Positions 41,280 through 59,610 of a stretch of DNA of 64,000 bases are shown piece by piece; within the stretch, counting starts at the first letter, position 1; each line of letters starts with the position of its first letter. The position numbers and the translations under genes were made by a program. The DNA lies in assembly GCA_044221725.1 (NCBI GenBank), contig JBGAON010000005.1:269344-333343 (forward strand). Reading direction: 5' to 3'. The stretch comes from Elusimicrobiota bacterium. GTDB lineage: Bacteria; Elusimicrobiota; Elusimicrobia; F11. The notes under the pieces are model-generated. The model ran no database searches. It saw nothing but the letters and a program-made list of their open reading frames with translations, and was not told the DNA's origin.

Positions 41280-41351
41280 AAAAAAAGGCGCTGTCATCGG
41301 CGGATCAAATAACCCGCCAACAACAGCGCCTCGGTTTGTCCGACAACGCTA
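41280..41351 (-). promoter_or_regulatory. Antiterminator-like hairpin overlapping an intrinsic terminator (copy 1)
   Basis: Minus strand TAGCGTTGTCGGACAAACCGAGGCGCTG..., then a 20-bp stem with G-U pairs, TATTTG loop and T run. Confidence 0.75.
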
Positions 41352-41356
41352 AATAG

Positions 41357-41533
41357 CTATTGTTTTTTTGATAATTCTCGTTTCAATTCTTCCAACTTCA
41401 TGCTCCGTTCTTCTTGGATCCGGCAGATGCGGCCATCCTCCCAGCTTAGAACCACTTTCCCATAGAAGCGACGCTGGCGCATAAGGCGAACCCACTCAAG
41501 TAAAATTTCCTCAGGGATGGGCCCACCGCTCAT
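41357..41533 (-). CDS. 58-aa YezD/DUF2292-like small protein (below the ORF-track cutoff)
   Basis: MSGGPIPEEILLEWVRLMRQRRFYGKVVLSWEDGRICRIQEERSMKLEELKRELSKKQ; GGAG RBS; FYG-V-x-x-x-x-DG-I-x-x-I-x-x-E pattern. Confidence 0.7.
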   Translation of the reverse strand: MSGGPIPEEILLEWVRLMRQRRFYGKVVLSWEDGRICRIQEERSMKLEELKRELSKKQ

Positions 41534-41629
41534 TTGATGCTCCGCATGTTCATAGTTCTCATATTCAACTCCAAATCCCTATATGTTAGCGATATATGTA
41601 CAAAAGCTACCTCAAAAGGCAAAAAAATA

Positions 41630-42631
41630 TCAGGCCGTATAAAGCTCAAGTCCCTCCGGGGTATAAACCTCAGACAAAGTCCAGGACTCGAGCGCTTTTT
41701 TCAATTTTTTATCGCCCTTCGCAGCCCACCCCAGCGACCGGCACAGTGTCCGCGCCAGCAATGCGCTAAGCGTGGCCTGAGCCCCGCTGTAGGCTTCGAT
41801 GGTTTCTTCCCGGTTTCTCTCTTTGGCAACGTACAAGTCATAGTGGATGCGGGAGGTGACGTCCTCCCAACTTTTTTGAAAGCGGAGAAGATAGCGTGGA
41901 TCAACATCCAGTTTTCCTTTGGACCGGACAAAGCAAACCATGTCCAATAATTGGAGGAAGGCGACGCGGGAATCGACGGCATGCCCAGACGTATTGAGTA
42001 TCCGAAGCGGAACATCCGACAACTCATTGCGAAGTTTCTCGCTTTCGATTCGAGCGATTTCCTCTTCCTTCATTCGCGGGAGGTTCTGTTTATGGGAGAG
42101 ATCGTTTATGGCTTTTTGAATTCGTTTGTGCGCTTCCTCTTGAATAAGCCATCCCCACCGGTCGTCAGCGAGTCGGATCTGCAATGTCAGCCGCTTTAAA
42201 CTCATAGCCTCATAGTCCCGCGTATAGTTATCCTTTCGCCCGTTGATCCCGACGAAGGCATAGAAGTGATTGAGATCGTCGAGGAAAATCTTAAAAAAGG
42301 CGTCGAGGTATTCGTCTCGTAATTGAATGATTCCTTGTTTGAATAGGTATTCGGCCAGCCACTTCCGAATCTGCGTATCGGAGCATCCCACGATGCGACC
42401 GATCTCGGCCAGCGTCCGGCGCCGCGTTGATTTCCAAAGAAGCATTTGGAGTTGAGCATTGAATTTCTTCTGTGTCAGTGGCCGAGTTTCATCGCGGGGA
42501 ATACCGGTGCGGGGTTGTTCTTCGAATGATTCTGACTTGCGCTGCATAAATAGAAGAAGATCAACGTCGGAGAAAAAATCCCGACGCGTTTTGTATTGGG
42601 GTGGAAGAAATCGGTCCGGCCCATTAACCAT
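41630..42631 (-). CDS. Hypothetical protein with an HTH
   Basis: TLAEIGRIVGCSDTQIRKWL; 333-aa ORF co-oriented with the module. Confidence 0.65.
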   Translation of the reverse strand: MVNGPDRFLPPQYKTRRDFFSDVDLLLFMQRKSESFEEQPRTGIPRDETRPLTQKKFNAQLQMLLWKSTRRRTLAEIGRIVGCSDTQIRKWLAEYLFKQGIIQLRDEYLDAFFKIFLDDLNHFYAFVGINGRKDNYTRDYEAMSLKRLTLQIRLADDRWGWLIQEEAHKRIQKAINDLSHKQNLPRMKEEEIARIESEKLRNELSDVPLRILNTSGHAVDSRVAFLQLLDMVCFVRSKGKLDVDPRYLLRFQKSWEDVTSRIHYDLYVAKERNREETIEAYSGAQATLSALLARTLCRSLGWAAKGDKKLKKALESWTLSEVYTPEGLELYTA

Positions 42632-42685
42632 AGTAGCGATAAACTACTATACGCTACTAAATATGTCAATTGAAAATATTGAGAG

Positions 42686-43570
42686 CTAAAACCGTGGGTG
42701 AGCTTGCTGGCAGGTTTCTCGAAGGGCTTGATGATTGAGATTCAAATAGCGTTGTGTTGACGTCAGATTGGAATGCCCCAACAATAATTGAAGCGAACGC
42801 AGATCCGCTTTTCCCTGGAGCATGTGCACGGCGAACGAATGGCGCAATAAATGAGGATAAACGCGTCGCGTTATCCCAGCGCGGGCCGAATACCGTTTGA
42901 ATTTTCGCCAAAATCCGTTCTTTCCAAGCCGGGTCCCGGATCGCGTTAAGAACAGTGCGCTACACCCATTCCCGGATTTGTCGGTTCTTCTTTGCAGATA
43001 AGCTCGCAGTGACTTAATCGCCTTCGTTCCAATCGGGACCAACCGTTCCTTTGATCCTTTGCCTTTCACTTTGATGTAGCCATCGTCCAAGTGGAGATGT
43101 TCGACGTTCAGACCGATAGCCTCGCCGATACGAAGTCCGCAATAAAGAATTTCCAGAATCGCCTGATCTCTCGTCCCCAAGAAAGTCGACTGCGAAGGAG
43201 CCGAAAGTAATCGCTCAACTTCCTCCACCGACAAGGGTTCCACAACGGAGATCTTCAATTCGGGCAATATCAGCCCGACCGTTGGGTCAAATTCCGCGTA
43301 ACCCTTTTCAACCAGAAACCGATGAAATGATCGAATCGCGATGGTGGCGCAGAATCGGGTGGTTGGGCTCAACCCACGATGGCTCAACTCTCCAACGTAT
43401 CTATTTGTCAACTTGCTGGTAGCAATAATGGGACCCGAATTCGCTTCTTGAAGGAATCGGCCATAAGCCTCCAGGTGATGGCTGTAGGTGATGGCAGTAT
43501 TTTCGGAGAGCCCGCGATCACTCCGTAGATGATTTAGAAATTCGGACAGATATTCTTTATGAAAGTTCAT
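42686..43570 (-). CDS. XerD-like tyrosine recombinase
   Basis: RGLSENT SAM-like domain, RDQAILEILYCGLRIGE, GKGSKERLVP, PHLLRHSFA, LLGHS, TQRY. Confidence 0.92.
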   Translation of the reverse strand: MNFHKEYLSEFLNHLRSDRGLSENTAITYSHHLEAYGRFLQEANSGPIIATSKLTNRYVGELSHRGLSPTTRFCATIAIRSFHRFLVEKGYAEFDPTVGLILPELKISVVEPLSVEEVERLLSAPSQSTFLGTRDQAILEILYCGLRIGEAIGLNVEHLHLDDGYIKVKGKGSKERLVPIGTKAIKSLRAYLQRRTDKSGNGCSALFLTRSGTRLGKNGFWRKFKRYSARAGITRRVYPHLLRHSFAVHMLQGKADLRSLQLLLGHSNLTSTQRYLNLNHQALRETCQQAHPRF

Positions 43571-44033
43571 GGCCGTTTGCCTTGGGCTTGAGGACTCGAA
43601 CGTGTTTCTTGTCGTCCTTTTCGATTTTCCATGCCTTACGAGAGAAGGAAACCATGCGGGCGCGCACGTTGGCCTCAACATCTTTGCCCTTGGCGAGATC
43701 CGCCGCCTGTTTGATGGCGAGCGCGGCGATTTCCTTCACGGTTTTTCCGCCAGCGAATAGCATCGGATCGATAGTCGCCGAGAGAGATTCTTTGTTCGAT
43801 TTTCGACCGCCTTTGCTCCGACCGCCCCCATTGGCGCGGATCAAGGTTTTCGCTTCCTTGCTGATCTGCGATTCCTTGTAGGATTTTAGTTCGTAGTTTT
43901 TAGAGACTTCGATGTCGTTTTCCGATCCGCCGATCTTCAAAACCACCTTATCGTTTTTGTGACCGACAACGGTGACCGGCGTCCCTTTTTTTGACAGATA
44001 CTTTTGACCTACTTTTGCGTCGATGGCGTTCAT
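43557..44033 (-). CDS. Basic hypothetical protein, possible DNA-binding
   Basis: 158-aa Lys-rich ORF with GGAGG RBS. Confidence 0.65.
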   Translation of the reverse strand: MNAIDAKVGQKYLSKKGTPVTVVGHKNDKVVLKIGGSENDIEVSKNYELKSYKESQISKEAKTLIRANGGGRSKGGRKSNKESLSATIDPMLFAGGKTVKEIAALAIKQAADLAKGKDVEANVRARMVSFSRKAWKIEKDDKKHVRVLKPKANGHELS

Positions 44034-44034
44034 A

Positions 44035-44272
44035 TTAGCGCCCTCCTTTTTTTGTTGTGACTGTTTTCTTGAAAACGGCGAAGTTCACACCTTCGCATTT
44101 CGGGCCTTCGATTTTTCGGATGACCCTGCGTAGATGGGGCGATCCATTCTTTGTCTTGCCCGGACCGATCCTCCGGCGCGAGCTGGCCCGATTGGATCAT
44201 GTGGATCTTTGATCCCAGCGCCTCGACGATTTCTACCCAGTCGGCCATTTCGAATTTGATGGTGTTCTGCAT
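44035..44272 (-). pseudogene. Small hypothetical gene with a probable frameshift
   Basis: MQNTIKFEMADWVEIVEAL...KEWIA then reads as amphipathic HLRRVIRKIEG in a shifted frame at the G4 run 44136-44139. Confidence 0.35.
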
Positions 44273-44592
44273 ACCCCTAGTTGCCTCCTTATCTCGCCCA
44301 CGTTGCGCCGTTCGTGCAACCCGTTGCCCTGTTTGGGCTATTTTTGCCGCTTTGTCCGGACCCAAGTACAGCGAGTTCGCGAATCAATCAAGGCCTTTTG
44401 TCGTCGACATCGCGCAATAAATCAAATCGATTCCGAGTCATCGAAATTTGGCGATTTGAGGTTTGTTTGGATAGGGAAGGACTACCTTCTTCAAAATAGG
44501 AAGCCAAGTCGAAGATCAAGTTAAAAGTTTTCAGGCGTGGCAATCTTCGATTCCTTCATGAAACCGGACAAGGTAAACTCACCTCTTAATCT

Positions 44593-46425
44593 ATGAGTGA
44601 AGAAATTCCCAGAAAAGACATTGTTTATTTTTCGTCGGCCAAATATCTGATCGGGTGTGCGGTGGCGGCTGTCGTCTTCCTATTGATCGGGAAAATTAAT
44701 CCATTTCCGGCCTGGTTTATTGCAGTGGAAGTGTTTGTGGCGGTGATTGCGCTTTTTGTCTTTGGGTCCATCCGTGACCGCCTGGACAAAAATGCGCTGA
44801 CCTATGGCGCGGTTCTCATCATCACAGCGACGTTTTGGGAATCGTGGTGGAGAGAATCGGGATTGAGAACCGATTTTTCAGCCGAAGGTTTTGGCGCGAT
44901 CCTTCGGTTTTTTCAGCACCATTTCCTGTCACTGCATGGCTTAGATGAGATCGTTCACGCCGATACCATGTTGTTTATTTTAGGCCTAACGTTTTTTGTC
45001 GCGGTCATAGCTCAGACCCGTATTCTCGAAACGATTAGTTTTTCCATCCTCAATAAGTTCAAAGGAAACGTTGTGCCAACGGTGGCGCTTCTCGCGGCCA
45101 TCGTCTCATTCTCATCGGGTATTTTGGATGGTGTTTCCATGATCGGCCTGATGATCCGGACGCTTGTGATCATCCTCTTCCTGGCCAGAATTAAGGATGA
45201 AGCTGTTGTGTATGCGGTGGTGGTATCGACGGTGGTCACAACGGTGTGCGGAATGTGGCTGGCCTATGGAGAACCACCCAACCTCATCATGAAATCCAAT
45301 CTCTCGCCGCATCTGAATGACGCGTTCTTCCTGCGATATTGCTTGCCGGTTGCCATCGGCGCTTATTTCATCGTGCTTTGGAACATCAAGCGAAAACTCA
45401 AGGGTCAGAAAGTCGACATATCGAAACTGGATGTGCTTGACCTCAATACGGCGGATGTACGGTTCATTCAGGCGCAACGGCATGGCAAAGTTTTAACGCC
45501 GATAGAGTTTGCTGAAGAGCACCGCCAGCAACTGGCCGAGCATTACGAACCGTTGATTCGCCGGCTTCATCAGGGTGAGACGCTTGGCGACGCTTTGACG
45601 GCCGAGCATATTCCACAAAGTGTCCGGCAATATCTAATGGGGCAATATGTGTCGGAAGATCTTGCGGAGGCGCTGGATCACCATTACTCAGTCGTGTTGA
45701 AAGATGATGCGCTTAATAACGATGATTCCATGCGCAAGATATCCAAGGCGCTGGCATGGATCCGCCAACGTCGAGTGCGTACACAATGGATTGGCGGCAT
45801 TTCGTTTATCCCATTTATCGGACTCTTGGTCTGGCATGCGATTGACCATGACGTTCCACTTTTTCTGGCATCTTTCGCCGGATTCGCAGTCGCCTTCTTA
45901 GGTATTCTAGGGATCACCAATATGCGGAGATTGGCTTTGCGCGAGGCCCGCCACGAATATGCGGAGTACCTTTTTCTTTTCCCGCTTTTCTTCTCGATAA
46001 CCCTGCTTCAAAAGACCGGTTTCTTTCAGCAGCTTGCGGATTTGCTCCATCACGGCGTCGAAAAATTGGGCCCACCACACATGGCCTTTCTTCAATTTAT
46101 CGGGACGGGATTTTTGTCTGCGATGTTGGACAACAACGTCGTAGCGGATTTCGCGGGCCGGGCGATTATGGGATTGGAATTAAGCGTTCTTCACCTTTTC
46201 GCCATGGCCCAGATTGCAGGATACGCGGTGGGGGGATGCTGGACACACATCGGTTCGGCCCAATCGGTTGTGGCTTATTCGTTCATTCGAAATGAAGTCG
46301 ACGAACACTTCACGCCGTTTCAGTGGATCAAAGCCATGACCCCTATCGTCTTAGAAATTTCGGTTTGGGTGACCGTGGTTATCTATGGCGAGGCTCTCCT
46401 TTTGCAATATCTTCCGGAGCATTAG
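44593..46425 (+). CDS. Ion transporter superfamily permease (SLC13/ArsB/NhaD-like)
   Basis: Many TM segments, GILDGV, YGEPPNLIM, SAMLDNNV, THIGSAQSVVA. Confidence 0.8.
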   Translation: MSEEIPRKDIVYFSSAKYLIGCAVAAVVFLLIGKINPFPAWFIAVEVFVAVIALFVFGSIRDRLDKNALTYGAVLIITATFWESWWRESGLRTDFSAEGFGAILRFFQHHFLSLHGLDEIVHADTMLFILGLTFFVAVIAQTRILETISFSILNKFKGNVVPTVALLAAIVSFSSGILDGVSMIGLMIRTLVIILFLARIKDEAVVYAVVVSTVVTTVCGMWLAYGEPPNLIMKSNLSPHLNDAFFLRYCLPVAIGAYFIVLWNIKRKLKGQKVDISKLDVLDLNTADVRFIQAQRHGKVLTPIEFAEEHRQQLAEHYEPLIRRLHQGETLGDALTAEHIPQSVRQYLMGQYVSEDLAEALDHHYSVVLKDDALNNDDSMRKISKALAWIRQRRVRTQWIGGISFIPFIGLLVWHAIDHDVPLFLASFAGFAVAFLGILGITNMRRLALREARHEYAEYLFLFPLFFSITLLQKTGFFQQLADLLHHGVEKLGPPHMAFLQFIGTGFLSAMLDNNVVADFAGRAIMGLELSVLHLFAMAQIAGYAVGGCWTHIGSAQSVVAYSFIRNEVDEHFTPFQWIKAMTPIVLEISVWVTVVIYGEALLLQYLPEH

Positions 46426-46447
46426 CCGAAACCGTAGGTGTACTGGC

Positions 46448-47059
46448 TTATTCAAGCGCAGTGAGGATTTTTTTCTGAATTTCTTCGCCATCGATTGAAA
46501 GACTTAACTTTTTGTGAAACAAGCGGTAGTGATTAATGAGGCCTGTCGAATAAGAAGCAAGTGATAGAGCCATTGTTCTTGCCTTCTCAGCTTGGCGGGA
46601 GGACCCACCTAGGGATCGAATCAAAAGATCTGCCAGTTGAAGGAGATAGTCTCCGTAGATTTCCTTAAGATTCGCAGAGATTCCCTGCTTAAGCTGAAGC
46701 AAACCTCTGACTTGATGAAAAATAAGAACAAATGATTCTTCTCTCAATAAAAAATCAACATGGGCTTTTACGAGTGCCTTTAAGGCATCTTGATGGTTGT
46801 CGTTTTTTTGAACCGACAACTGGCATCGAGCCATAAGCTTGTCGAGTCCGTCTCTGAGGAGGTTTTCGAGCAGTTCGTCTTTCCCAGAGAAATACTGATA
46901 GAAGGTGCCCTTTCCAATATCCGCCTTCTCGGTGACGTCTTCAATGGTTGTTACGTAGATACCTTGTCTTGAAATGATATCGAGAGCTACGGCCATGAGC
47001 GTTTCGCGCGTTAGTTTTTTCTTTCGTTCCCGCCTCGTCAAATCTTCCGTTGCTTCCAC
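46448..47059 (-). CDS. TetR/AcrR-family regulator
   Basis: RRERKK...TTIEDVTEKADIGKGTFYQYFSGKDEL. Confidence 0.93.
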   Translation of the reverse strand: MEATEDLTRRERKKKLTRETLMAVALDIISRQGIYVTTIEDVTEKADIGKGTFYQYFSGKDELLENLLRDGLDKLMARCQLSVQKNDNHQDALKALVKAHVDFLLREESFVLIFHQVRGLLQLKQGISANLKEIYGDYLLQLADLLIRSLGGSSRQAEKARTMALSLASYSTGLINHYRLFHKKLSLSIDGEEIQKKILTALE

Positions 47060-47116
47060 GTTTCCTCCCCAGTACGGGTTATCAAGATAATTACGTGTGA
47101 GAATCCTTGCATAATC

Positions 47117-47150
47117 TTGACCGGTCAGTCAATTTTGACTACTGTGTCAA
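47117..47150. promoter_or_regulatory. Two tandem TTGAC-N6-GTCAA operators
   Basis: TTGACCGGTCAGTCAA (47117-47132) and TTGACTACTGTGTCAA (47135-47150) between divergent tetR and otsA. Confidence 0.7.
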
Positions 47151-47205
47151 AAATGGGACCCGCACACGTATTTTTCCTAAAAAAAGCTGATTCGACGGAG
47201 TCAAA

Positions 47206-49461
47206 GTGAAGATCACGCTCCGTCTTGTTTTATCGCTGGTGGCCGTCATAACGATGGTGGTCGCTCTATTCACGTTTTTGCAAGTCCGGCATGAAGAAAA
47301 AGTGATGCTGGAAGAAATGGAACGAAGGGGCGCGCTTCTGGCGGAAAGTCTTCAGGATTCTATTGAGCCCCATCTTGCTCCCCGCAATGAAAAGGGACTT
47401 GCGAGAATTGTTGAGAAATTCGGGAATCGTGAACGCGTGGCTGGAATTGCGGTTTACGGTCCTGACAAATCAATTGTTGCCATGACGAAGAGTCTCGCAG
47501 CCTGGCTTCCCGATCCGCCCTCTGCGGTCGCCACCTCTCTTGCCGAAGGAACGGCGCGGGGTGAGCTTTTCAGTCCTTCAAAAGAAAAAGCAATTTACGG
47601 ATATTTCTTTCCTTTCACTTCCCCGGACGGCTCCTCCTACTTATTGGCATCCTATCATCCCGCCAATCACATTCGCACACGTCTTAGAGACTTGTACCAA
47701 CAAGGGTTTATCCGCCTGTTCTTACAGGCATTTCTCATTTCGCTTGTAACGATTTTCATTATTCGATGGAACGTCATGGCCCCGCTCCATAAGGCCGCTG
47801 ATTGGATTAAGAAGCTTCGCCTGGGAGAAGAAGGACCCCACGCCTCTCTTCCGAAAGAACTTTTTGGTCCCCTGGAAAAAGAAGTGACTCGCTTAGCGAA
47901 GAGTTTTACGACCGCTCGGGCCGCCGCTGAAGAAGAGGCCAAGCTCCGCCAGCAAGCCGATTCCATTTGGACCTCCGACCGCCTGCGTGAGTATGTTCGC
48001 ACGAAACTGCCGGATCAAAAGCTTCTAGTGGTTTCTAACCGCGAGCCCTACATGCATGTCCGAAAAGGAAAAGACGTTGACTGCATCATGCCGGCCAGCG
48101 GTCTTGTCACGGCGCTTGAACCCATATTGAGAGCCTGTGGTGGCACGTGGGTGGCGCATGGAGCCGGAGGCGCTGATAAGGAAATGACCGGTACAGACAA
48201 TCGGCTAAAGGTTCCACCGGATGAGCCCCAGTACCTCCTTCGCCGAGTTTGGCTTTCGAAAGAGGAAGAAGATGGCTATTACTACGGATTTTCCAATGAA
48301 GGGTTTTGGCCTCTATGTCACATCGCTCATAATCGTCCCGTTTTTAAGCCTGAAGACTGGGACTATTATCAAACTGTCAACGGCAAGTTCGCTGACGCCG
48401 TTTTGGAAGAAATTGAAAATGACGAAGAGCCTTTGATTCTAATTCAGGACTATCATTTTGCTCTCCTCCCCCGGTTGATCAAGGATAAGCGCCCGGATGC
48501 GCGTATCGCTCTTTTCTGGCATATCCCTTGGCCTAATCCTGAATCATTTGGCATCTGCCCGTGGCAGCGCGAAATCGTTCATGGAATGCTGGGCGCGGAC
48601 CTCATTGGATTTCACATCCAACAACACTGCACCAATTTCTTAGACACCGTGGACCGAACGGTTGAATGCCGGATCGATTGGGAACGATTCGTTGTTAATC
48701 GGCAAGACCACAAAACGCTCGTCAAACCGTTTCCCATCAGTGTTGCGTTAACACCCTCGGCGACAAATGGATCACCGGCCCCTAAACCTTCCGCTGATAA
48801 AGAAGCGATCTTCAAGCAACTTGGGATTAAAGGGCAATATCTTGCCGTGGGAGTGGATCGAATTGACTACACCAAAGGCATTATCGAACGGTTCCGGGGC
48901 ATCGAACGTTTCTTGGAAAAAAACCCCAATTATCAAGGCAAGTTCGTGTTTGTGGAATTGGGCGCGCCGAGCCGCACCCTTATCAAACGCTACCACGATC
49001 TGATGGCGGAAGTGGAAGAGGAAGCCGAGCGGATCAATTGGAAGTTCAAGTCAAAAGAATGGCAGCCCATCGTGTTTTTAAAGAAACATCACAGTCATCA
49101 AGACATTGAGCCTTTCTACAAAACGGCTGACCTGTGTCTTGTCACCTCGTTGCACGATGGAATGAATTTGGTCGCCAAAGAATACATTGCCGCCCGCGAC
49201 GATGAAGATGGCGCTCTGATACTAAGCCGGTTCACTGGCGCTTCGCGAGAACTTCCTGATGCTTTCATCATTAATCCCTACGACGTGGATAGAACCGCCG
49301 ATGCGATACGGGCCGCGTTGGAAATGGAACCCGAGGAACGCCGAAAAAGAATGCGGCGAATGAGAACAGTGGTGATGGGAAACAACATTTATAAGTGGGG
49401 CGCCAACTTGATCGAAGATCTTTCGCAAATCAGATTGGAAACCAACACGCCGGTCGCTTAA
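47206..49461 (+). CDS. otsA: Trehalose-6-phosphate synthase with N-terminal 2-TM sensor/HAMP-like fusion
   Basis: VVSNREP, ASGLVTAL, IQDYH, HIPWP, VDRIDYTKG, DGMNLVAKEY; about 270 extra N-terminal residues with two TM helices. Confidence 0.92.
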   Translation: MKITLRLVLSLVAVITMVVALFTFLQVRHEEKVMLEEMERRGALLAESLQDSIEPHLAPRNEKGLARIVEKFGNRERVAGIAVYGPDKSIVAMTKSLAAWLPDPPSAVATSLAEGTARGELFSPSKEKAIYGYFFPFTSPDGSSYLLASYHPANHIRTRLRDLYQQGFIRLFLQAFLISLVTIFIIRWNVMAPLHKAADWIKKLRLGEEGPHASLPKELFGPLEKEVTRLAKSFTTARAAAEEEAKLRQQADSIWTSDRLREYVRTKLPDQKLLVVSNREPYMHVRKGKDVDCIMPASGLVTALEPILRACGGTWVAHGAGGADKEMTGTDNRLKVPPDEPQYLLRRVWLSKEEEDGYYYGFSNEGFWPLCHIAHNRPVFKPEDWDYYQTVNGKFADAVLEEIENDEEPLILIQDYHFALLPRLIKDKRPDARIALFWHIPWPNPESFGICPWQREIVHGMLGADLIGFHIQQHCTNFLDTVDRTVECRIDWERFVVNRQDHKTLVKPFPISVALTPSATNGSPAPKPSADKEAIFKQLGIKGQYLAVGVDRIDYTKGIIERFRGIERFLEKNPNYQGKFVFVELGAPSRTLIKRYHDLMAEVEEEAERINWKFKSKEWQPIVFLKKHHSHQDIEPFYKTADLCLVTSLHDGMNLVAKEYIAARDDEDGALILSRFTGASRELPDAFIINPYDVDRTADAIRAALEMEPEERRKRMRRMRTVVMGNNIYKWGANLIEDLSQIRLETNTPVA

Positions 49462-49463
49462 CG

Positions 49464-50237
49464 ATGCAGTATTTGTTTTCGGATTGGCCGGACATCTCTA
49501 AGCGGCTTCGTTCTGCGTCTCATAGGCTTTATCTTTTCGACATCGACGGAACTCTGGCGTCGATTGAAAAAGTTCCACAGGCTGCGCGAATTCATGCGCC
49601 ATTGCGGCGGCTCTTATATTCCCTTTCCGTCACGCCTCGATCAACCGTGGGAATTATTTCTGGCCGTCAGCTTGATGACGCCAGGGAGATGGTCGGGTTG
49701 CAGCACCTAATTTATGCCGGGAATCATGGGTTGGAAGTGTGTTTTAACGGAAGCAGGCATATTGAACGACAGGCTAGAAATCACGCACACGCGCTTGAGC
49801 TTATTTACCGTGATGCCAAACAAGCATTTGGCGATGTGCCAGGAGCCATCGTCGAGTGGAAAGGGCTCACCATGAGTTTGCATTACCGGATGGTCGAGAA
49901 GAAAAATATGGCGAAGTTTGAACGAATTTTTCAAGAGGACATCGTCCCGCTTTTGGCGCGCGATAAATTTCAGCATCGAAAAGGAAAGAAGGTAATCGAA
50001 ATTATTCCCTTCGGCGATTGGAGTAAGGGAACCGTTGTCGAAATGCTGGCAAAACATTTCCGAAAGCCAGTGACGATTTTCATTGGAGATGATGTGACCG
50101 ACGAGGGAGCTTTCGGTGTCATGGGGCCTGATGATGTCTCCGTCCGAGTTGGACACAAGGATGATTCGAAAGCTCTCTACTACTTAAAAAACCAGGGAGA
50201 GGTAAAAAAACTTCTTCAGCGCTTGGTTAAATTGTAA
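49464..50237 (+). CDS. otsB: Trehalose-6-phosphate phosphatase
   Basis: FDIDGTL, ISGR, GNHGLE, IGDDVTDEGAF. Confidence 0.93.
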   Translation: MQYLFSDWPDISKRLRSASHRLYLFDIDGTLASIEKVPQAARIHAPLRRLLYSLSVTPRSTVGIISGRQLDDAREMVGLQHLIYAGNHGLEVCFNGSRHIERQARNHAHALELIYRDAKQAFGDVPGAIVEWKGLTMSLHYRMVEKKNMAKFERIFQEDIVPLLARDKFQHRKGKKVIEIIPFGDWSKGTVVEMLAKHFRKPVTIFIGDDVTDEGAFGVMGPDDVSVRVGHKDDSKALYYLKNQGEVKKLLQRLVKL

Positions 50238-50626
50238 TGCCGATCCCAAACGAAATTAAATTGTTCATCAGTCAGTATATTGGATCAATTCAGCAGTTGG
50301 AGGTCTTGCTGGCCGTTAGCTCTGAGCCGGAACGCAATTGGAGCCCTGAAGAAATCAGCAAAAAGCTTGGGTTGGATGTAACGGCGGTGACCAACCGGCT
50401 CCTGAGCCTCTGCGTCAAGGGATTGGTTCGTTCAGATGAAAAGCAGGCTCGCACGTTCTGCTATCAGCCCGAGGGAACCGTCGCGGACATCATGGTGAAA
50501 AAGCTTGCGTCGCTCTATAGAGAACACCCGGCGCCCTTGGTGGAATTTATTTGCTCCCGGGCTGAGAGCCGATTGCGAGATTTTTCAGACGCTTTCAAGC
50601 TAAATCAGGAAGAAGAAAATGATTAA
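50237..50626 (+). CDS. Hypothetical winged-helix-like protein
   Basis: SIQQLEVLL...WSPEEIS...FSDAFKL; overlapping start and stop codons. Confidence 0.7.
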   Translation: MPIPNEIKLFISQYIGSIQQLEVLLAVSSEPERNWSPEEISKKLGLDVTAVTNRLLSLCVKGLVRSDEKQARTFCYQPEGTVADIMVKKLASLYREHPAPLVEFICSRAESRLRDFSDAFKLNQEEEND

Positions 50627-50876
50627 GGCTATTTACATGCTGTGCGGCCTCACAAGCGTTGGCTGCGCAATTCTGTTGGTAAGGCGTTATCTCCGCACAA
50701 AAACCAAGCTTCTTCTTTTGAGCAGCGTTTTCTTTATGACGCAAGCCGTGACGAATATTCTTCTTTTTGTTGATCTCGTTGTGGTGCCTGATATCGATTT
50801 GTCCCCGCTGCGAAGTCTCATCGCTATTATCGGGCTCGTTTTTCTTCTATTCGGCTTGATCTGGGAAACTTCATGA
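50619..50876 (+). CDS. Small 3-TM protein (DUF5985-like)
   Basis: IYMLCGLTSVGCAILL...NILLFVDL...GLIWE. Confidence 0.75.
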   Translation: MIKAIYMLCGLTSVGCAILLVRRYLRTKTKLLLLSSVFFMTQAVTNILLFVDLVVVPDIDLSPLRSLIAIIGLVFLLFGLIWETS

Positions 50877-51142
50877 CCTTATTTCTCTCAGGCGTGATAA
50901 TGGCTCTATATTGGGCTGCCGCTCTTTTCTTTTTCCGGTTTTGGAACAAGACCTATGACCGTCTTTTTGGAGCATTCGGTTTGGCGTTATGGCTTCTTGG
51001 CCTGGAGCGATTGATTTTTCTTTTTGTTCCTCAAGCGCACGAGGCTCAGCCTTATATTTATTTGGTCCGGCTTATGGCCTTCATTTTGATCCTCATTGCG
51101 ATTGTGGACAAAAATGTGAAACACGGAGACGAACAATCCTAA
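50873..51142 (+). CDS. Small 3-TM protein (DUF5985-like)
   Basis: FFFRFWNKTYDRLF...YLVRLMAFILILIAIVDKN. Confidence 0.75.
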   Translation: MTLFLSGVIMALYWAAALFFFRFWNKTYDRLFGAFGLALWLLGLERLIFLFVPQAHEAQPYIYLVRLMAFILILIAIVDKNVKHGDEQS

Positions 51143-51147
51143 AAGTT

Positions 51148-51837
51148 ATGGATCTTACGCAGGCTACTCATCCATTTCAATTCGAAACTCAGGTTAATCT
51201 GGTCAAGCTAACGGGCCGGCAAGCGAAAAATCTGCAGGAGCTGATTACTTACCTCAAGGAAGCCTCTCCATCCGTTATCTATTACCACACGCATCATTTT
51301 CTAAAGCAACATCAATTCTTGTCGCCGGAGCCGCCGAATGATTTTGCGTTCTGGGTGACGAATGTTCTTCAGGAAGATCGTCTGGGAGAAAAATTGGCGG
51401 CTATCGATACGGTGCGATTTGGCTCCATTCACGAACTCGGCAAGAAGATCGTCGATTTGATTGAACAATACCTCGAATCGCGCGGATCGGACCGGAAAGC
51501 TCCTGAAGGCGAAGAATTTCATTTCAGAGAATCAATCGGGTTCATTCTATCCACGCCTTATCAAGCGCATGATCTTGAATCCTTCGCGGAAGGCGTGAAA
51601 AAAGTCAGCGCTCACTCGCTTTATCACCATATTTTTGAAGCGCGACTACGATTGGAGAAAGGCCAAAACGATTTCTCGAAATGGCTAACCGACGAATTGG
51701 GCGAAAAACAATTGGCCAAGTCGATTGCAAGACTTGATCCGTACACCCACACGTCCGAAGGCTTAAGAGAGCGCATGTTGGAGCTTGTCGTAACACGAAT
51801 ACAGGAATTAACTGCGGGAGAGTCGCATGCATCTTGA
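51148..51837 (+). CDS. DUF5752-like protein (TreT-associated)
   Basis: Internal repeat SVIYYH...NDFAFW / SLYHH...NDFSKW; precedes treT. Confidence 0.75.
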   Translation: MDLTQATHPFQFETQVNLVKLTGRQAKNLQELITYLKEASPSVIYYHTHHFLKQHQFLSPEPPNDFAFWVTNVLQEDRLGEKLAAIDTVRFGSIHELGKKIVDLIEQYLESRGSDRKAPEGEEFHFRESIGFILSTPYQAHDLESFAEGVKKVSAHSLYHHIFEARLRLEKGQNDFSKWLTDELGEKQLAKSIARLDPYTHTSEGLRERMLELVVTRIQELTAGESHAS

Positions 51838-53047
51838 CGATTATCGCCCGATCGTAGGCGACTCCGTCATCGATGAGCTTTTGCTCATCGCGCGAAAATT
51901 AAACGGACGCGTCGTCAAAAATATCAATTCCACGGCCGTGGGAGGCGGGGTGGCAGAAATATTGAACCGGATGGTGCCTCTGTTAAAGGAATTGGGGATT
52001 CAGGCTCAATGGGACGTGATCCGCGGCGGCGATCAATTCTTCGATGTCACCAAGAAAATTCACAACGCCCTTCAGGGGGCGGATTTGGAATTTACCGAAA
52101 AAGACAAACAAGTCTATTGGGAATCCCAAGAAGAAAATTTGAAGATGATGAATTTCGATGCCGACGTTATTTTTATACACGATCCCCAACCGGCAGGGCT
52201 CATCAAAAAGAGAGTGGAAATCAAAAGCCGTTGGATCTGGAGATGTCACATAGATCTCTCAAACCCCAATCCGGCTGTTTGGAATTTCCTAAAGCCTCTC
52301 GTCGATAACTACGATGCCAGCGTTTTTTCTGCTCCGCCGTTTGCGCGTCAATTGGACATTCCTCAAATTATGATTTGTCCCTCCATTGATCCGCTGAGCG
52401 ATAAGAACAAGGAACTCGAACCTTCCTTTATTCAATCTGTGTTGGATCGTTTTGGAATTTCAAAAAAGAAGCCGCTCGTGACACAGGTATCACGGTTTGA
52501 CTATGCAAAAGATCCGGTGGGCGTCATCAAAGCCTATCGCATGGTGAAGTCGTATATCGATTGCCAGTTGCTCTTGGTGGGCGGTTCTGCCACCGATGAC
52601 CCGGAAGGCGCTCAAGTCCTTGCCGATGTAAAAACTGAGGCCGCAGACGATCCTGATATTCATATTCTGGAGCTTCCGCCGACAAGCCATCTTGAGATCA
52701 ACGCGCTTCAGCGGGCAAGTACCGTAATTTTTCAGAAGTCTCTGAAGGAAGGATTTGGCCTTACCGTGTCGGAAGCTTTATGGAAAGGAAAACCAGTGAT
52801 TGCAGGCGCCGCAGGAGGAATCCCGCTCCAGATCACGCACAAGTATTCCGGCGTCTTGACGCATTCTGTTGAGGGGGCCGCTTATTGGCTGAAACAACTT
52901 TTGCATGCCCCCGCCTTTGCAAAAAAACTTGGCGAAAATGGGCGAGAGCATGTGCGCGAGAATTTTTTACTGACGAGACATTTAAGGGAATATCTTCTGT
53001 TGTTTTTGTCTTTGGAACATCCTGGCGAAGGAATGATCCGCTTATAG
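51827..53047 (+). CDS. treT: TreT-like glycosyltransferring trehalose synthase (GT4)
   Basis: NSTAVGGGVAEIL, IHDPQP, WRCHID, VSRFDYAKDP, EGFGLTVSEALWK. Confidence 0.88.
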   Translation: MHLDDYRPIVGDSVIDELLLIARKLNGRVVKNINSTAVGGGVAEILNRMVPLLKELGIQAQWDVIRGGDQFFDVTKKIHNALQGADLEFTEKDKQVYWESQEENLKMMNFDADVIFIHDPQPAGLIKKRVEIKSRWIWRCHIDLSNPNPAVWNFLKPLVDNYDASVFSAPPFARQLDIPQIMICPSIDPLSDKNKELEPSFIQSVLDRFGISKKKPLVTQVSRFDYAKDPVGVIKAYRMVKSYIDCQLLLVGGSATDDPEGAQVLADVKTEAADDPDIHILELPPTSHLEINALQRASTVIFQKSLKEGFGLTVSEALWKGKPVIAGAAGGIPLQITHKYSGVLTHSVEGAAYWLKQLLHAPAFAKKLGENGREHVRENFLLTRHLREYLLLFLSLEHPGEGMIRL

Positions 53048-53093
53048 GAGGAGGTCATTCGGAACAATTGAAAGCGCTACAAACTCCAACTTG

Positions 53094-53372
53094 ATGACGA
53101 ATAAAAACGAGGTGGGTATAGAGAAGACTGCGCCGCTAATGAACACTTCGGAACTCGCAATATGGCTCAACATAAAAGAATCAACCATTCGAAAATGGGT
53201 TTGCTATCGCAAAATTCCATACATTTCGGTGGGACGTGCTGTTCGATTTCGAAAACAGGATATCGAAACGTGGCTGAATGAACGCACGATGATGCCGACG
53301 GGCTTCTCAGGCCAGAGGAAAAATAAAGAGCCAACACCTATCGCACCCTCTGGCCTGAATTCATTTCGATAA
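53094..53372 (+). CDS. Excisionase-like HTH protein
   Basis: LMNTSELAIWLNIKESTIRKWVCYRKIPY...VRFRKQDIETWL. Confidence 0.85.
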   Translation: MTNKNEVGIEKTAPLMNTSELAIWLNIKESTIRKWVCYRKIPYISVGRAVRFRKQDIETWLNERTMMPTGFSGQRKNKEPTPIAPSGLNSFR

Positions 53373-53407
53373 AGGCGTGATAACCTCTATAATTGAGCAG
53401 TAAATCT

Positions 53408-53468
53408 TAACGTTGTTGGGCAAACCAAGGCGTTGCTGTTCCCATCTGGGATCGGCGACGCCTTTTTT
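53408..53468 (+). promoter_or_regulatory. Antiterminator-like hairpin overlapping an intrinsic terminator (copy 2)
   Basis: TAACGTTGTTGGGCAAACCAAGGCGTTGCTGTTCCCATCTGGGATCGGCGACGCCTTTTTT. Confidence 0.75.
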
Positions 53469-53522
53469 ATTTTCAGGAGGCAACGTTGGGATCGCGCTAG
53501 CCGACTAATTTGGAATTTTTAC
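53411..53522 (+). repeat. ~112-bp degenerate direct repeat of 57569-57680 (RNA motif + dead cyclase 5' end)
   Basis: GGAGGCAACGTTGGGATCGCGCTAGCCG versus GGAGGCGACGATGGGATCGCGCAAGCCG. Confidence 0.8.
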
Positions 53523-53609
53523 TTCTCGGTTGTATTTTCTGAGAATCTATGCGGATATATTCGCTCTCGAGGGTTAAAATATCTCTACGCACTCACTAAA
53601 GGAGGAGAC

Positions 53610-54893
53610 GTGGAACCTTTGCCGGCCGTTATTCATTGGCCTCCGCTTCTAACCTTATATCGTCTTATGATCGCTTTAGCGCTTGGACTTTTTATTGGCC
53701 TGGAGCGCGAATGGCGTGGAAAGGAAGCTGGTCTTCGAACGTTCGGTCTATCGGCGCTGATGGGCGGAATCGGAGGACTCATTGGTGCTTCATTTTCTTT
53801 GCTTTGTGTTGCGCTTCTTGCTGTTCTCGTTGTCTTCCTCAACATTCAATCATTAATGAAGGAAAAAAGCGCCGAACTAACAACCTCCGTCGCTCTTCTT
53901 ATAACGGGGCTCACCGGTGTCCTATGCGGCATGGGACACGTGATCACGCCGACTGCTGTGATCGTTGTTAGCGCAGGCCTTCTCACTTGGAAAGAGAAGA
54001 TGGCTGGATTTAGTCACAACTTAAGCGCAGAAGAATTAAGAGCGGCCATTCTTCTCGGAATATTGACGTTCGCGATTTATCCTGTTCTTCCGACGTCGTC
54101 CATTGATCCTTGGGGCCTTCTTAGCCCGCGCGGTGTGTGGATGACGGTGATCCTCGTGGCTGCGATTGGATTCATCAACTATATCTTTTGGAAAAGCATG
54201 GGCAACCGGGGGATGGAACTGATGGGATTTTTCGGCAGCCTTGTTAACAGTTCAGTCGTTGTTATAGAAATCGCCACGCGTGTTAAAGAAGCTCCAGAAG
54301 AACTTCTCGAGATCGCTTACCGGGCGGTTATCTGGGCGACTGCTGCGATGGTCTTGCGAAATGGAATTATTCTCGGTCTTTTAGGGTGGAAAGTTTTGGG
54401 CGGCGCACTTCTACCGTTTTCGTTGTTGCTGATTGGCTGCGCCGTTTTTGTAAATAAACGGCAGACGCCGATTCATAAGTCCGCTCCGGGAGAAGTGAAG
54501 CCTCTTCCGCTCAAGTCGCCTTTCTCGCTAACTTCTGCTCTAAAGTTCGGACTAATTTTCCTTGCGTTGGAAGTCGCAGGGACGCTGGCGCAGCGTACTA
54601 TCGGGAATGGTGGATTTTACGCGGTGAGCCTTATAGGTGGAGTGATTTCGAGCGCATCGGCCGTCGCATCTGCGGCGAGTCTTTTCACCACAAACCAAAT
54701 CTCCGCGAACACGGCTGCAAACGGCGCGATCTTAGCGTCACTCGCAAGTGCCGCCGTTAATGTCGCCTTTGTAGCACGCTATTCCAAAAATAGATCACTC
54801 GTGATCCGATTATCTCGAGCGCTTGGCATCATTTTCATCCTGACCCTCGCAGGGTTAATCGTTCAAATAACCTTCATGGGTCGGATCGGTTAA
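53610..54893 (+). CDS. MgtC/SapB + DUF4010-type membrane protein
   Basis: LGLFIGLERE, AGLRTFGL, ELTTSVA, GSLVNSS, SPFSLTSALKFG; GGAGG RBS before GTG 53610. Confidence 0.88.
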   Translation: MEPLPAVIHWPPLLTLYRLMIALALGLFIGLEREWRGKEAGLRTFGLSALMGGIGGLIGASFSLLCVALLAVLVVFLNIQSLMKEKSAELTTSVALLITGLTGVLCGMGHVITPTAVIVVSAGLLTWKEKMAGFSHNLSAEELRAAILLGILTFAIYPVLPTSSIDPWGLLSPRGVWMTVILVAAIGFINYIFWKSMGNRGMELMGFFGSLVNSSVVVIEIATRVKEAPEELLEIAYRAVIWATAAMVLRNGIILGLLGWKVLGGALLPFSLLLIGCAVFVNKRQTPIHKSAPGEVKPLPLKSPFSLTSALKFGLIFLALEVAGTLAQRTIGNGGFYAVSLIGGVISSASAVASAASLFTTNQISANTAANGAILASLASAAVNVAFVARYSKNRSLVIRLSRALGIIFILTLAGLIVQITFMGRIG

Positions 54894-54896
54894 AAA

Positions 54897-55295
54897 TTAA
54901 TCGCGAGCCGCGTCCACGGAGCAACCACCGCCACCAACCCAGATCAGAAACAGAAGACCTAAGGACATTGTGTAATCCACTCGCGCTTCATGCGCGGCTT
55001 TCCAAAACCCATCGTGAATAAGCATAGGGACTTTTGTCGTAATGATCGCCACGGCAATATCGATTAGAAGGGGAATAGCAGCCAGCCGCGTAAAAAGTCC
55101 GATGATCAGCATTGCTCCACCTAGGATCTCGACCACACCAACAAAGGGTGCCATGATGCTGGGGGCTGGAATGCCGATTTTTATGAAACGACCAACACCT
55201 AGCGCGTCGGGAAAAAGGAATTTCTGAATCCCCTCGGATAAAAACACCGCGCCAACCGCAAGCCGAATCAGAACAATGGGCTTGGAATCTCTCAT
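54897..55295 (-). CDS. DoxX-family membrane protein
   Basis: LIRLAVGAVFLSEGIQKF, GLFTRLAA, GGGGCSVD. Confidence 0.88.
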   Translation of the reverse strand: MRDSKPIVLIRLAVGAVFLSEGIQKFLFPDALGVGRFIKIGIPAPSIMAPFVGVVEILGGAMLIIGLFTRLAAIPLLIDIAVAIITTKVPMLIHDGFWKAAHEARVDYTMSLGLLFLIWVGGGGCSVDAARD

Positions 55296-55387
55296 GCAGG
55301 CTCCAATTAAATGATTCTTGTTTTCGATAACGAAATTCGATATTAACAATACAATAATACGTAGCGATAGAGGGCTGGTTCGCCAAG

Positions 55388-55690
55388 ATGGAAAAAGAAT
55401 TTTACACAGGCTTCATTCGCCTTCACATTCTCTATCACGCGACGAAAGAGCCAATCTTCGGTTTGGGAATTATCGAGGAATTGTCTCACCACGGCTATCG
55501 CCTAAGTCCTGGAACGCTGTATCCGATTTTGCATGGTCTCGAGGGCAAAGGATACTTGAGGTCCAAGATGGCAAGAATAGGCAAACGAGGTCGGCGAGTG
55601 TATAGAGCCACATCTAAGGGCCGAAAGGCGTTGAGCGAAGCAAAATCCAAAATTCGCGAGATCTTCTTTGAAATATTGGAGGAGACATGA
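55388..55690 (+). CDS. PadR-family regulator
   Basis: LHILYHA, LSPGTLYPILHGLE, RRVYRATSKG. Confidence 0.92.
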   Translation: MEKEFYTGFIRLHILYHATKEPIFGLGIIEELSHHGYRLSPGTLYPILHGLEGKGYLRSKMARIGKRGRRVYRATSKGRKALSEAKSKIREIFFEILEET

Positions 55691-56265
55691 AAAATAAGAC
55701 GGTATCTATTTTGTGGGGATTTATTATTGCGGGATCGTTCACGTCTTCACTTAGAGCGGCTCATAACGACAACGTTCCAGTCCGTTATTTTCTCCCTGAC
55801 GCGGCGGGTTCTGCAATCGTGACCATATCAACTGAGAATGTCCCATCAGCCTCAGCGTCCATTACTATTCTAACGCAAGCCGTGTCCATAATGGAAACGG
55901 GACCCGCTGCAACGATCAAGGCGTTCGGTGAAGTATATGCGTTCTCGCCATCTTTCTTCATGTTAAGAAAGGATGTCCCAACGCGATTAGAATTCTGGAA
56001 TCTTCAGCCCGACGATGTGCATCAATTTTTTCTGGTTGGTCCGAACTCAGAATCGTTGCTGTTTGTGGAACTGCCTGCTCTAAGGAAAACCTCTTACGTA
56101 CTTACATTTCATCGAGAAGGGCTTTATTCCTTTCAATGCCCAGTGCATGGAGCGGCGATGTCTGGGCAACTTTTCGTACTTCCTCCGGAGAAAAATTCGA
56201 CGGATTCAGAGGGATCTCGTTCGACAGGGTTAGGCGCATGGTTGAGGCATCACATAGGAAAATAA
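55687..56265 (+). CDS. Exported cupredoxin-domain protein
   Basis: Signal peptide, DVHQF, GLYSFQCPVHGAAMSG type-1 copper ligand pattern. Confidence 0.8.
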   Translation: MKNKTVSILWGFIIAGSFTSSLRAAHNDNVPVRYFLPDAAGSAIVTISTENVPSASASITILTQAVSIMETGPAATIKAFGEVYAFSPSFFMLRKDVPTRLEFWNLQPDDVHQFFLVGPNSESLLFVELPALRKTSYVLTFHREGLYSFQCPVHGAAMSGQLFVLPPEKNSTDSEGSRSTGLGAWLRHHIGK

Positions 56266-57458
56266 GCGGCGGTTATCGCCTTTTTGCTTCATCGGCATTC
56301 ACATTTGTGTTCACGATGGGCATCGTGAATCTTTTTGCCGACATGACTTATGAAGGCGGGGCAAGCCTAAATGGTCCCTTCATGGGATCTCTCGGCGCAA
56401 GCGCAGCGATCATCAGCATCGTGGCGGGAGTCGGCGAGTTTTTGGGATACACGCTGCGGTTTGTGTCGGGTTATTTTAGCGACAAGACCGGCAAACATTG
56501 GTTGATAACGTTTGTTGGCTACACCATAAATTTATTGGCTGTTCCTGCAATGGCTCTGGCCGGACATTGGAAAGTGGCGGCTGGCCTTATTCTGTTGGAA
56601 CGCATTGGCCGAGCAATTCGCAAACCAACAGTGGAAGCAATGCTCTCCTACACGACACACGAACTGGGTAAAGGTTGGGTCTATGCGCTGAACACCGCGC
56701 TTGATGAGATTGGAGCCACTCTGGGACCGCTTGTGGTCGCACTCGTTTTATTTCTTAAAGGAACCGAGCGGACGGCGTACGCATCTCTTCTTATCACGGC
56801 GATGCTGACGTTGGCTACTCTATCGGCGGCGCGATTCATCTTTCCGTTGCCAGCCGATTTAGAGAAAGGGCGTACAGCTACCACGAAAGGATTTACGAAG
56901 CGTTATTGGTTTTTGATGGTGGCTGGAGTTTTTTTCGCAGCGGGTCTGCTAAGTTATGAACTGATCGCGTATCACTTGGCCAGCGCGAAGGTGGTTCCCA
57001 GAGCGTTTGTCCCGGTTTTGTTGGCCTTTTCCACGGGGTTTGGGGTGATAGCAAGTTTGGTGTTCGGTAAAGCCTATGACAGGAAAGGATTGCCCATATT
57101 GCTTTTAGCGGTTTTTCTCTCCTCACTTTTCGCGCCCGCCGTGTTCCTCGGAAAATTCCTGGGATTGATTTTTGCGATGGTCTTTTGGGGGATCGGCTAT
57201 GCAACTCAGGATACATTGCTCAAGGCTCTTATTGCGAGTGAACTGCCAGAAGGAAAGCGAGATTTTGCTTTCGGACTTTTTTATATCGGTTACGGCGTCG
57301 GATGGTTGATCGGCAGTATTGTGAGTGGACTTCTATATCGAGATCACCAAACATCCCTGATTTTATTCGCCAGCGTTGTACAGCTTTGCTCGATTCCTTT
57401 TTTCATTATCGCTGAGAGATCGAGCGCAAGCGATCCTGGAATCGCTCAACCGTACTAG
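56238..57458 (+). CDS. MFS transporter
   Basis: LFADMTYEG, SGYFSDKTG, ERIGRAIRKP; about 12 TM; start uncertain. Confidence 0.9.
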   Translation: MVEASHRKISGGYRLFASSAFTFVFTMGIVNLFADMTYEGGASLNGPFMGSLGASAAIISIVAGVGEFLGYTLRFVSGYFSDKTGKHWLITFVGYTINLLAVPAMALAGHWKVAAGLILLERIGRAIRKPTVEAMLSYTTHELGKGWVYALNTALDEIGATLGPLVVALVLFLKGTERTAYASLLITAMLTLATLSAARFIFPLPADLEKGRTATTKGFTKRYWFLMVAGVFFAAGLLSYELIAYHLASAKVVPRAFVPVLLAFSTGFGVIASLVFGKAYDRKGLPILLLAVFLSSLFAPAVFLGKFLGLIFAMVFWGIGYATQDTLLKALIASELPEGKRDFAFGLFYIGYGVGWLIGSIVSGLLYRDHQTSLILFASVVQLCSIPFFIIAERSSASDPGIAQPY

Positions 57459-57565
57459 CGTTTGGATGATAAGATCCATAGCGCATCTCTCGCCTGAATC
57501 CATTTCGAAAAGAGATAATGCGATAGATATTTAATGGATTGCCGGTCAAGGTAGACGCCAATCCA

Positions 57566-57626
57566 TAGCGTTGTTGGGCAAACCAAGGCGTTGCTTTTCC
57601 CATGTGGGATTTGCGACGCCTTTTTT
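57566..57626 (+). promoter_or_regulatory. Antiterminator-like hairpin overlapping an intrinsic terminator (copy 3)
   Basis: TAGCGTTGTTGGGCAAACCAAGGCGTTGCTTTTCCCATGTGGGATTTGCGACGCCTTTTTT. Confidence 0.75.
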
Positions 57627-57643
57627 ATTTTAAGGAGGCGACG

Positions 57644-59519: not shown

Positions 59520-59610
59520 TGGTTTAACCTATATTAGACCAAGTTATTATCCATTTGGCAGATAAATAGTTGTGTGGGAGAATGCCTTTGAATGAAAGGA
59601 GAACGTAACC

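Follow-up and report, generated by a model that had tools for sequence, protein, structure and literature searches.

A 64,000-nt stretch of the genome of an Elusimicrobiota bacterium (assembly GCA_044221725.1, contig JBGAON010000005.1, positions 269,344 to 333,343; the whole stretch is referred to below as the window) carries three copies of a repeat that is very probably an antiterminator/terminator RNA switch. The first copy starts shortly behind an open reading frame (ORF), P0001, for a small DUF2292-like protein, and sequence comparisons suggest that this protein is, with fair probability, the antiterminator acting on the hairpin. The RNA is real, conserved and tightly linked to DUF2292-like small proteins, and is apparently unpublished. 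An initial annotation of the window had described the three copies and missed the DUF2292-like gene that ends 5 nt ahead of copy 1. It also missed what seems to be a wide motif family, which would gate head genes of phages and has a putative chromosomal counterpart before sulfur genes.

The repeat consensus had exactly three matches in the window (41351-41324 on the minus strand, 53408-53435 and 57566-57593 on the plus strand), all at the places originally reported, and none in 100 shuffles. Folded alone, each copy forms a two-stem hairpin with a 5-nt loop and free energies of -12.4, -9.7 and -9.6 kcal/mol for copies 1, 2 and 3 (modest z-scores of -2.4, -1.3 and -1.0). The unpaired G described between the two stems is present, but it is part of a 2x1 internal loop, which in the window reads UG on the 5' side and G on the 3' side, and not a simple bulge. 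The overlapping terminators are strong, at -38.8, -28.1 and -23.9 kcal/mol (z-scores of -8.2, -7.0 and -6.2). As hairpin and terminator use the same strand, the two folds are mutually exclusive, just as the initial annotation had it. Forcing the antiterminator state costs 8.1, 8.1 and 7.9 kcal/mol in the window copies and a median of 5.7 kcal/mol (range 0-9.0; total stability -16 to -44) among 65 matches, ~3 of which are probably due to chance. This energy gap to the terminator state is of a size that protein binding could close.

Copies 2 and 3 stem from one duplication of 115 nt (88.7% identity) that comprises the hairpin, the terminator, the ribosome-binding site (RBS) and the first codons of a cyclase-like gene; their likeness continues further upstream, more weakly. 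Consequently, covariation of the upper stem within the window (TCGG/CCGA versus TTGG/CCAA) is present but rests on two independent sites only. The difference between AACG and AGCG, which had been taken for covariation of the lower stem, is a one-sided A-U/G-U change and not compensatory. An RBS does follow each copy, although that of copy 2 leads to a dead remnant of four codons, the next start being the GTG of a membrane protein gene (Table 1). The sigma-70-like promoter match before copy 2 is weak by itself, because shuffles average 0.3. TATAAT or TAGAAT precedes cyclase-linked copies in relatives as well, and no promoter-like match was found upstream of copy 3. Metatranscriptome contigs (four runs of one study) are scattered pieces that cannot show ends, strand or level and are uninformative on the switch; one of them spans copy 3 without differences, which speaks neither for nor against termination.

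Table 1. Predicted features of the three switch copies and the genes around them (window positions).
Feature	Position	Strand	Remarks
Tyrosine integrase	35364..36392	-	PF00589, E 2.8e-26; last of co-oriented run
Terminase large subunit	36654..38021	-	phrog_38, E 5.2e-86
Helix-turn-helix protein; putative small terminase subunit, by position	38254..38850	-	HTH_Tnp_1, E 6.3e-06
PriCT-1 / DUF3987 primase-helicase-like gene	38847..40748	-	Domain matches
Prim-Pol primase	40730..41266	-	PF09250, E 1.9e-43; first gene past copy 1
Copy 1 intrinsic terminator	41280..41332	-	22-pair stem, U7; 5' base common with hairpin
Copy 1 antiterminator hairpin	41324..41351	-	Upper stem UCGG/CCGA, loop ACAAA; begins 5 nt past small-ORF stop
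P0001, 58-aa small ORF, candidate antiterminator protein	41357..41533	-	Distant DUF2292/YezD/OscA-like; stop 5 nt before copy 1
Sigma-70-like promoter match	53366..53393	+	10/12; 14 nt before copy 2
Copy 2 antiterminator hairpin	53408..53435	+	UUGG/CCAA, loop GCAAA
Copy 2 terminator	53428..53468	+	U6
RBS and decayed duplicate of cyclase-like gene start	53475..53522	+	4 codons (53486-53500), stop at 53500
MgtC/DUF4010 membrane protein	53610..54893	+	GTG start 53610; first intact cargo gene past copy 2
Copy 3 antiterminator hairpin	57566..57593	+	UUGG/CCAA, loop GCAAA
Copy 3 terminator	57586..57626	+	U6
Single-domain class III nucleotidyl-cyclase-like gene	57644..58342	+	PF00211, E 1.1e-10; intact, after copy 3

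P0001 itself matched nothing in Pfam, PHROG or NCBIfam (PF10055 and NF033785 both missed it). At the profile level, however, hhalign aligned 46 of its relatives with 21 Pfam DUF2292 proteins over 46 columns (probability 96.6, E 6.4e-10), the shared layout being helix, aromatic-G, strand, turn-G, strand. PF10055 was matched by 9 of 23 small-protein relatives at E <=1 (best 5.6e-05), and the relatives P0024 and P0028 carry this domain. An AlphaFold2 (AF2) model of P0001 shows a helix, a beta-hairpin and a second helix (predicted local distance difference test, pLDDT, 91.8). Family members span 43-65 aa, keep the structured core with its G-x8-G hairpin and have no sensing domain. Foldseek returned no structure at E <=0.001 and the best Z in the fold searches was 2.9 (a 58-residue monomer being too small a query to decide), a sequence search of solved structures gave nothing below E 0.098, and homodimer prediction scored 0.32 versus a mark of 0.42. 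A search of annotated phages gave no match to one 43-aa family member. A leaderless start of the small ORF was considered and is not supported: a GGAG precedes the ATG, and five relatives show no conservation of the DNA upstream.

Gene and hairpin are linked in both directions. Starting from the protein, a 14-row profile gave 40 matches in 29 of 401 genomes of the host phylum; removal of six RNA-found seeds and eight weak matches (long frames, internal stop, off-family, near-duplicate) left 26 homologous ORFs. Using a sequence anchor that did not require pairing, we detected a phage-type hairpin after the stop codon in 19 of them (18 at 4-17 nt, one at 128 nt), with A-U (14) or G-C (5) as the loop-closing pair, and a related chromosomal-type hairpin behind two more. 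Starting from the RNA, an RNA-only pattern yielded 35 viral loci, 20 of which (some redundant) have a small ORF <=30 nt away; the remainder comprise ten good terminators lacking an adjacent ORF, one doubtful and four chance-like loci. After duplicates and chance-like loci had been dropped, 27 whole viral records were searched with the protein profile, which matched 24 of these hairpin-bearing records versus none of 27 control records holding only chance RNA matches. As 17 of the 27 records contributed to the profile or are close to it, a fair test is left to the remaining ten, which have neither an adjacent ORF nor a profile row: here, seven were matched, with the gene 99-911 nt upstream on the same strand in six and 40 kb away, next to a hairpin-terminator of its own, in the seventh.

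Individual loci depart from this arrangement. By eye, hairpin-less small ORFs abut an excisionase-like gene at L074, L081 and L093. At L102:1536-1591 (record G438), a provirus rated complete, a hairpin-terminator fits the pattern, scores low with the model and comes without a small-protein match; it may be either chance or an exception.

Broader searches were less productive. A short pattern of 18 nt, applied to viral contigs, was abandoned, all 25 loci being coding or chance with no terminator, and was reused as a negative control. Among 120 matches listed from a pattern scan of GTDB contigs, one locus was clearly real and one doubtful; conserved coding sequence, sigma-54 activator-like by eye, dominated these matches. 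A metagenome scan gave nine loci, of which five are real. The RNA model found a match in 30 of 150 genomes at E <=0.05; inspection of 18 further loci showed a terminator at only 5, so that most weak matches are due to chance. The protein profile had two matches in 151 genomes of a deltaproteobacterial phylum.

Covariation, as anticipated for a larger alignment, holds across 46 distinct sequences (45 of 58 listed loci plus one window copy; six chance-like or doubtful loci and seven near-duplicates were dropped by hand). In this alignment, 93.8% of cells pair, versus 21-47% in slid controls. Columns 18-29 hold C-G in 31 and U-A in 15 sequences, columns 20-27 A-U in 24 and G-C in 22, with zero mismatches; the outer pairs of the lower stem hold less well, being unpaired in 14 and 8 of the 46 sequences. 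Both-sided changes affect 44 cells, versus 17.5 +/- 5.6 after shuffling. A covariance model recovered four held-out loci, which brought further stem variants. Although not formal, the sequences being related, this covariation is strong. The internal-loop purine, which is unpaired in the hairpin, covaries with its partner in the terminator (G-C 43, A-U 20 and G-U 2 of 65), and the hairpin holds conserved unpaired bases. In alignment A4, no conserved block was seen on either side of the hairpin, no search aimed at boxA having been made.

Loops are more variable. They measure 5-6 nt across the family, 6-nt loops of some relatives having a purine first and a G fourth, and a single host genome can hold three classes of loop. 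In seven two-copy elements, the loops of which were paired by hand and three of which come from one genome, loop length is always equal within an element, and only 8 of 5040 permutations matched the loop sequences as well. In one informative case, a prophage on contig C3 of the same genome encodes a cyclase 72% identical to that of the window, and the hairpin belonging to it has a 6-nt loop like the head copy of its own prophage, unlike the more similar 5-nt-loop group.

A related hairpin occurs behind chromosomal DUF2292 genes. In the phylum to which a Clostridia record belongs, 26 of 151 genomes contain PF10055. Defined strictly (Y-G-A, paired stem, loop, stem, A-G-G, <=300 nt from the stop), the chromosomal hairpin follows 12 of 29 DUF2292 genes versus 0.91 expected from shuffles, and nearly all such hairpins overlap a terminator-like stem. 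One genome has ten pattern matches, nine with a terminator-like stem, versus none in the reversed control. The genes downstream include cysK, cysH, pdxS and genes resembling cysteine desulfurase, a sulfonate-type ABC permease, NifB and nitrite/sulfite reductase. Where the phage-type RNA has a U-A pair, the chromosomal type places A opposite A, and the phage-type covariance model fails to detect it; the proposed kinship of the two hairpins rests on a common core (alignment A6) and on the homology of the proteins. At two loci a SAM-I riboswitch stands upstream of the DUF2292 gene and hairpin-terminator (L316:1290-1660, before cysH; L320:1235-1760, before a thrC-like gene), an arrangement that suggests tandem control. 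Some Bacillota carry tandem or fused double DUF2292 proteins with a conserved 'DGDGI/DGEGI' tail (L333, L345, L335, L331, L332), several of them with variant hairpins.

In the mechanism we propose, a protein-binding antiterminator hairpin of ~28 nt would overlap the base of an intrinsic terminator. Without ligand, the terminator would form and transcription would stop. P0001 would bind the hairpin and keep the shared strand of 5-7 nt from the terminator base; with this strand withheld, the remaining stem would be separated from the U tract, and RNA polymerase could read on into the primase, helicase, terminase and integrase genes. As the small gene lies upstream of the terminator, its product would be made despite termination and could build up before read-through and reach distant copies. 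P0001 would also work in trans, at the promoter-proximal copy ahead of the cyclase-like gene, a copy that no small ORF accompanies; in full prophages the same module would gate the head operon. Termination in vivo, binding, the direction of the effect and action in trans are what we infer from sequence.

Alternatively, a host factor (Nus, a ribosomal protein, an ANTAR or other RNA-binding protein) might bind the hairpin, with the small protein serving another role in the operon. The host encodes two ANTAR proteins (both chromosomal matches above cut-off; none lies in the element), some relatives have the purine-first 6-nt loops with G in fourth place, and the hairpin is missing behind some small ORFs. 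Yet the loops of the window are single and 5 nt long, with an A..G hexaloop upstream of copy 3 only and none at copies 1 and 2; moreover, the gene-hairpin link holds both ways and across phyla, and one host genome contains three loop classes. We regard a host factor as unlikely. Slightly less likely again is ribosome-coupled attenuation, in which the ribosome ending the small ORF would cover the 5' strand of the hairpin and set the fold, whatever the protein product. While the hairpin start falls within the ribosome footprint in 18 of the 19 protein-selected cases, the distance is as large as 99-911 nt in other phages, both folds are retained where no small ORF lies upstream (window copies 2 and 3), and the protein keeps a structured core and shows no run of regulatory codons.

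The sign of the effect might also be the opposite, the hairpin forming first, read-through being the default and the small protein promoting termination. Such a kinetic default is possible, given that the hairpin is complete before the 3' strand of the terminator is made; but by itself the hairpin has little stability (-9.6 to -12.4 kcal/mol), the terminator state lies 8 kcal/mol lower, and conserved unpaired hairpin bases fit a stabilizing ligand, all of which renders this version improbable. Control by RNA only, as a small-molecule riboswitch or through action on RNA polymerase like HK022 put, would suit the conserved internal loop and the cis position before operons, but is highly improbable for an RNA of just ~28 nt with a variable loop, mutually unrelated downstream genes (primase, head protease, cyclase, sulfur enzymes) and an overlap with a single terminator that accounts for the effect locally.

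Several observations weigh against antitermination by the small protein. Fold searches with the protein, a small query, gave no clear match to a known RNA-binding fold, and the narrow energy gap comes partly from the short overlap. Five of the 26 homologous ORFs have no hairpin, three of them leading straight into an excisionase-like gene, and 3 of the 27 hairpin-bearing viral records, one rated complete, have no protein match. Likewise, 17 of the 29 chromosomal DUF2292 genes are without a strict hairpin, some having near matches, and none stands behind the one Pseudomonas gene examined. Relatedness among the aligned sequences is a further limit, as are the selection by pattern and the filtering by hand that produced the 46-row alignment. 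Duplication or conversion could account for matching loops within an element; along the protein tree, loop length shifts three times or more, and closely related proteins occur with different loops, which weakens strict loop specificity.

The best model for the logic is the RAT/BglG type, to which RNA and protein nevertheless appear unrelated. In the accessible text of PMC4347634, the ribonucleic antiterminator (RAT) is a hairpin of 23-30 nt that partly overlaps an intrinsic terminator and that protein binding is proposed to stabilize. The RATs of BglG, SacY and LicT resemble our RNA in the exclusive folds over part of a terminator, in size and in the internal loop. As the initial annotation had judged, though, the RNA belongs to neither the RAT nor the ANTAR type. 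The Rfam comparison it had called for gave no family match at gathering score within the window; at 20 related loci, nothing reached that score save two unrelated SAM riboswitches. Among the weak matches of relevance, bglG-cis-reg came out best at copy 1, with 18.8 bits (E 0.6) versus a cut-off of 80. The proposed partner here is a helix-hairpin protein of 43-65 aa instead of a protein with a sensing domain, and phage and sulfur genes take the place of sugar operons as targets. CAT_RBD (PF03123) had no match in the window's own genome (94% complete; the control matched 4/14) and none in 23 small proteins. ANTAR regulators (EutV, AmiR, NasR) share with our system a hairpin overlapping a terminator and several target leaders per regulator. 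Their target, as given in the available part of PMC3369931, comprises two hexaloop hairpins (A1, G4) with a linker of 5-12 nt, whereas ours is a single hairpin with a loop of 5 nt in the window and 5-6 nt in relatives.

DUF2292/YezD/OscA proteins (PF10055, NF033785) show profile-level homology to the small proteins, and their chromosomal members precede the related hairpin-terminator, although P0001 stays below both family models. In phage lambda, N acts together with Nus factors and boxA to modify RNA polymerase so that read-through is processive, and nut is not known to overlap the terminators that are passed. The N/nut boxB system is similar in combining a small phage protein with a small hairpin whose loops are apparently element-specific; it differs in that each hairpin described here overlaps one terminator and that the gated genes are late or replication genes.

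In the literature on DUF2292, yezD, oscA, the cysH leader and phage antitermination, we found no description of the hairpin RNA, most subscription papers being beyond reach. The accessible portions of PMC6385201 and PMC10433965 call yezD 'unknown' and oscA a sulfur starvation protein, respectively, and offer no mechanism; the mention of DUF2292/PF10055/COG5583 in the available text of PMC7921472 is not mechanistic, and nor is the occurrence in PMC7953295. The accessible text of PMC4342826 holds no description of the hairpin RNA, and that of PMC11109978, PMC8632094 and PMC6429828 no such motif. The supplements of PMC8632094 and PMC6429828 do not contain the names in their available parts; those of PMC11109978 and PMC5737381 might list it.

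Copy 1 stands before a co-oriented run from primase and helicase to terminase and integrase, in line with the replication-packaging-excision operon of the initial annotation except for excision, as a domain scan found no excisionase in this run. With no capsid, portal or tail gene among the 45 ORFs scanned (from position 31.4 kb up to the window end), the element reads as satellite-like. The proposed element-wide regulon of three sites including cargo is not supported as it was put, copies 2 and 3 being one duplication and the cargo being absent from relatives. In those relatives, window positions 43580-44512 adjoin the hairpin and cyclase directly, the cargo between 44.5 and 57.5 kb is missing, and two RNA-library contigs of related elements skip the same 13 kb, indicating that the cargo is a later insertion. 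For the second site, the ancestral target is the nucleotidyl-cyclase-like gene, not the cargo. An integron-like role of the repeats was dropped, since the left cargo junction (~44510) carries no copy. No attachment-site repeat >=13 nt was found between 32000-36700 and 44000-64000.

The cargo block of the window (44593-57458) encodes trehalose synthesis, MgtC, DoxX, PadR and MFS proteins; another, on G000:C3 (~78.3-98.3 kb), encodes Kdp potassium transport and a TonB receptor. Both are inserted at the same spot, with a XerD-like integrase module on one side and the hairpin-cyclase unit on the other, and each holds a duplicated or broken hairpin copy. An HTH_17 excisionase-like ORF (53091-53372, plus strand) ends 35 nt before copy 2, within the cargo. 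At 42686-44365 (minus strand), the window has a second, XerD-like tyrosine recombinase accompanied by two upstream genes of no known function; satellite-like elements and full prophages have this module in common, at a DNA identity of 79-83%. Beside the integrase, positions 33546-35204 carry a Dam-like methyltransferase gene and a convergent DUF7687/DUF7690 gene, possibly a restriction-modification pair. L098 (G001:C14), a collinear satellite-like element, has a serine recombinase in place of the tyrosine integrase and only the 3' end of the cyclase.

In phages, the switch has other genes behind it. On contig C3, a complete prophage carries a homologue of the small ORF (G000:C3:123275-123466) with a hairpin; the pair lies between the portal and head protease genes, ahead of the major head, connector, tail and lysis genes, so placed that the switch would gate the head operon; no Q-, N- or RinA-type regulator is evident in this annotated prophage. 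The RNA model found six copies in the genome at E <=0.011, three in the window and three in or beside the C3 prophage; of the latter, one has lost an intact terminator and another precedes a cyclase homologue. In other records, judged by eye from translations, the downstream gene resembles a head protease, scaffold, small terminase, primase or tail gene. The cyclase-like gene is a conserved target of the promoter-proximal copy, the same pairing occurring in related elements (L101:11756-12451, L260:7542-8237, L384, L360, L390-L392). What we take to be its acidic metal-binding and N/R motifs appear intact by eye.

We give about even weight to a broader reading, in which DUF2292/YezD/OscA-like proteins would be an unrecognized class of minimal RNA-binding antiterminators. 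The module would then run chromosomal sulfur regulons in Bacillota and other phyla, in many phages and satellites it would serve as the switch for late or replication genes, and element-specific loops would separate co-resident prophages and satellites or let one trigger another. If true, this would assign a function to the widespread DUF2292 family, including YezD of Bacillus subtilis and OscA, and a protein of 45-60 residues with a 28-nt target and variable loops would give synthetic biology a compact toolkit of transcription switches. The finding also adds an RNA family absent from Rfam, and it offers a possible mechanism of late-gene control for phages of uncultured phyla.

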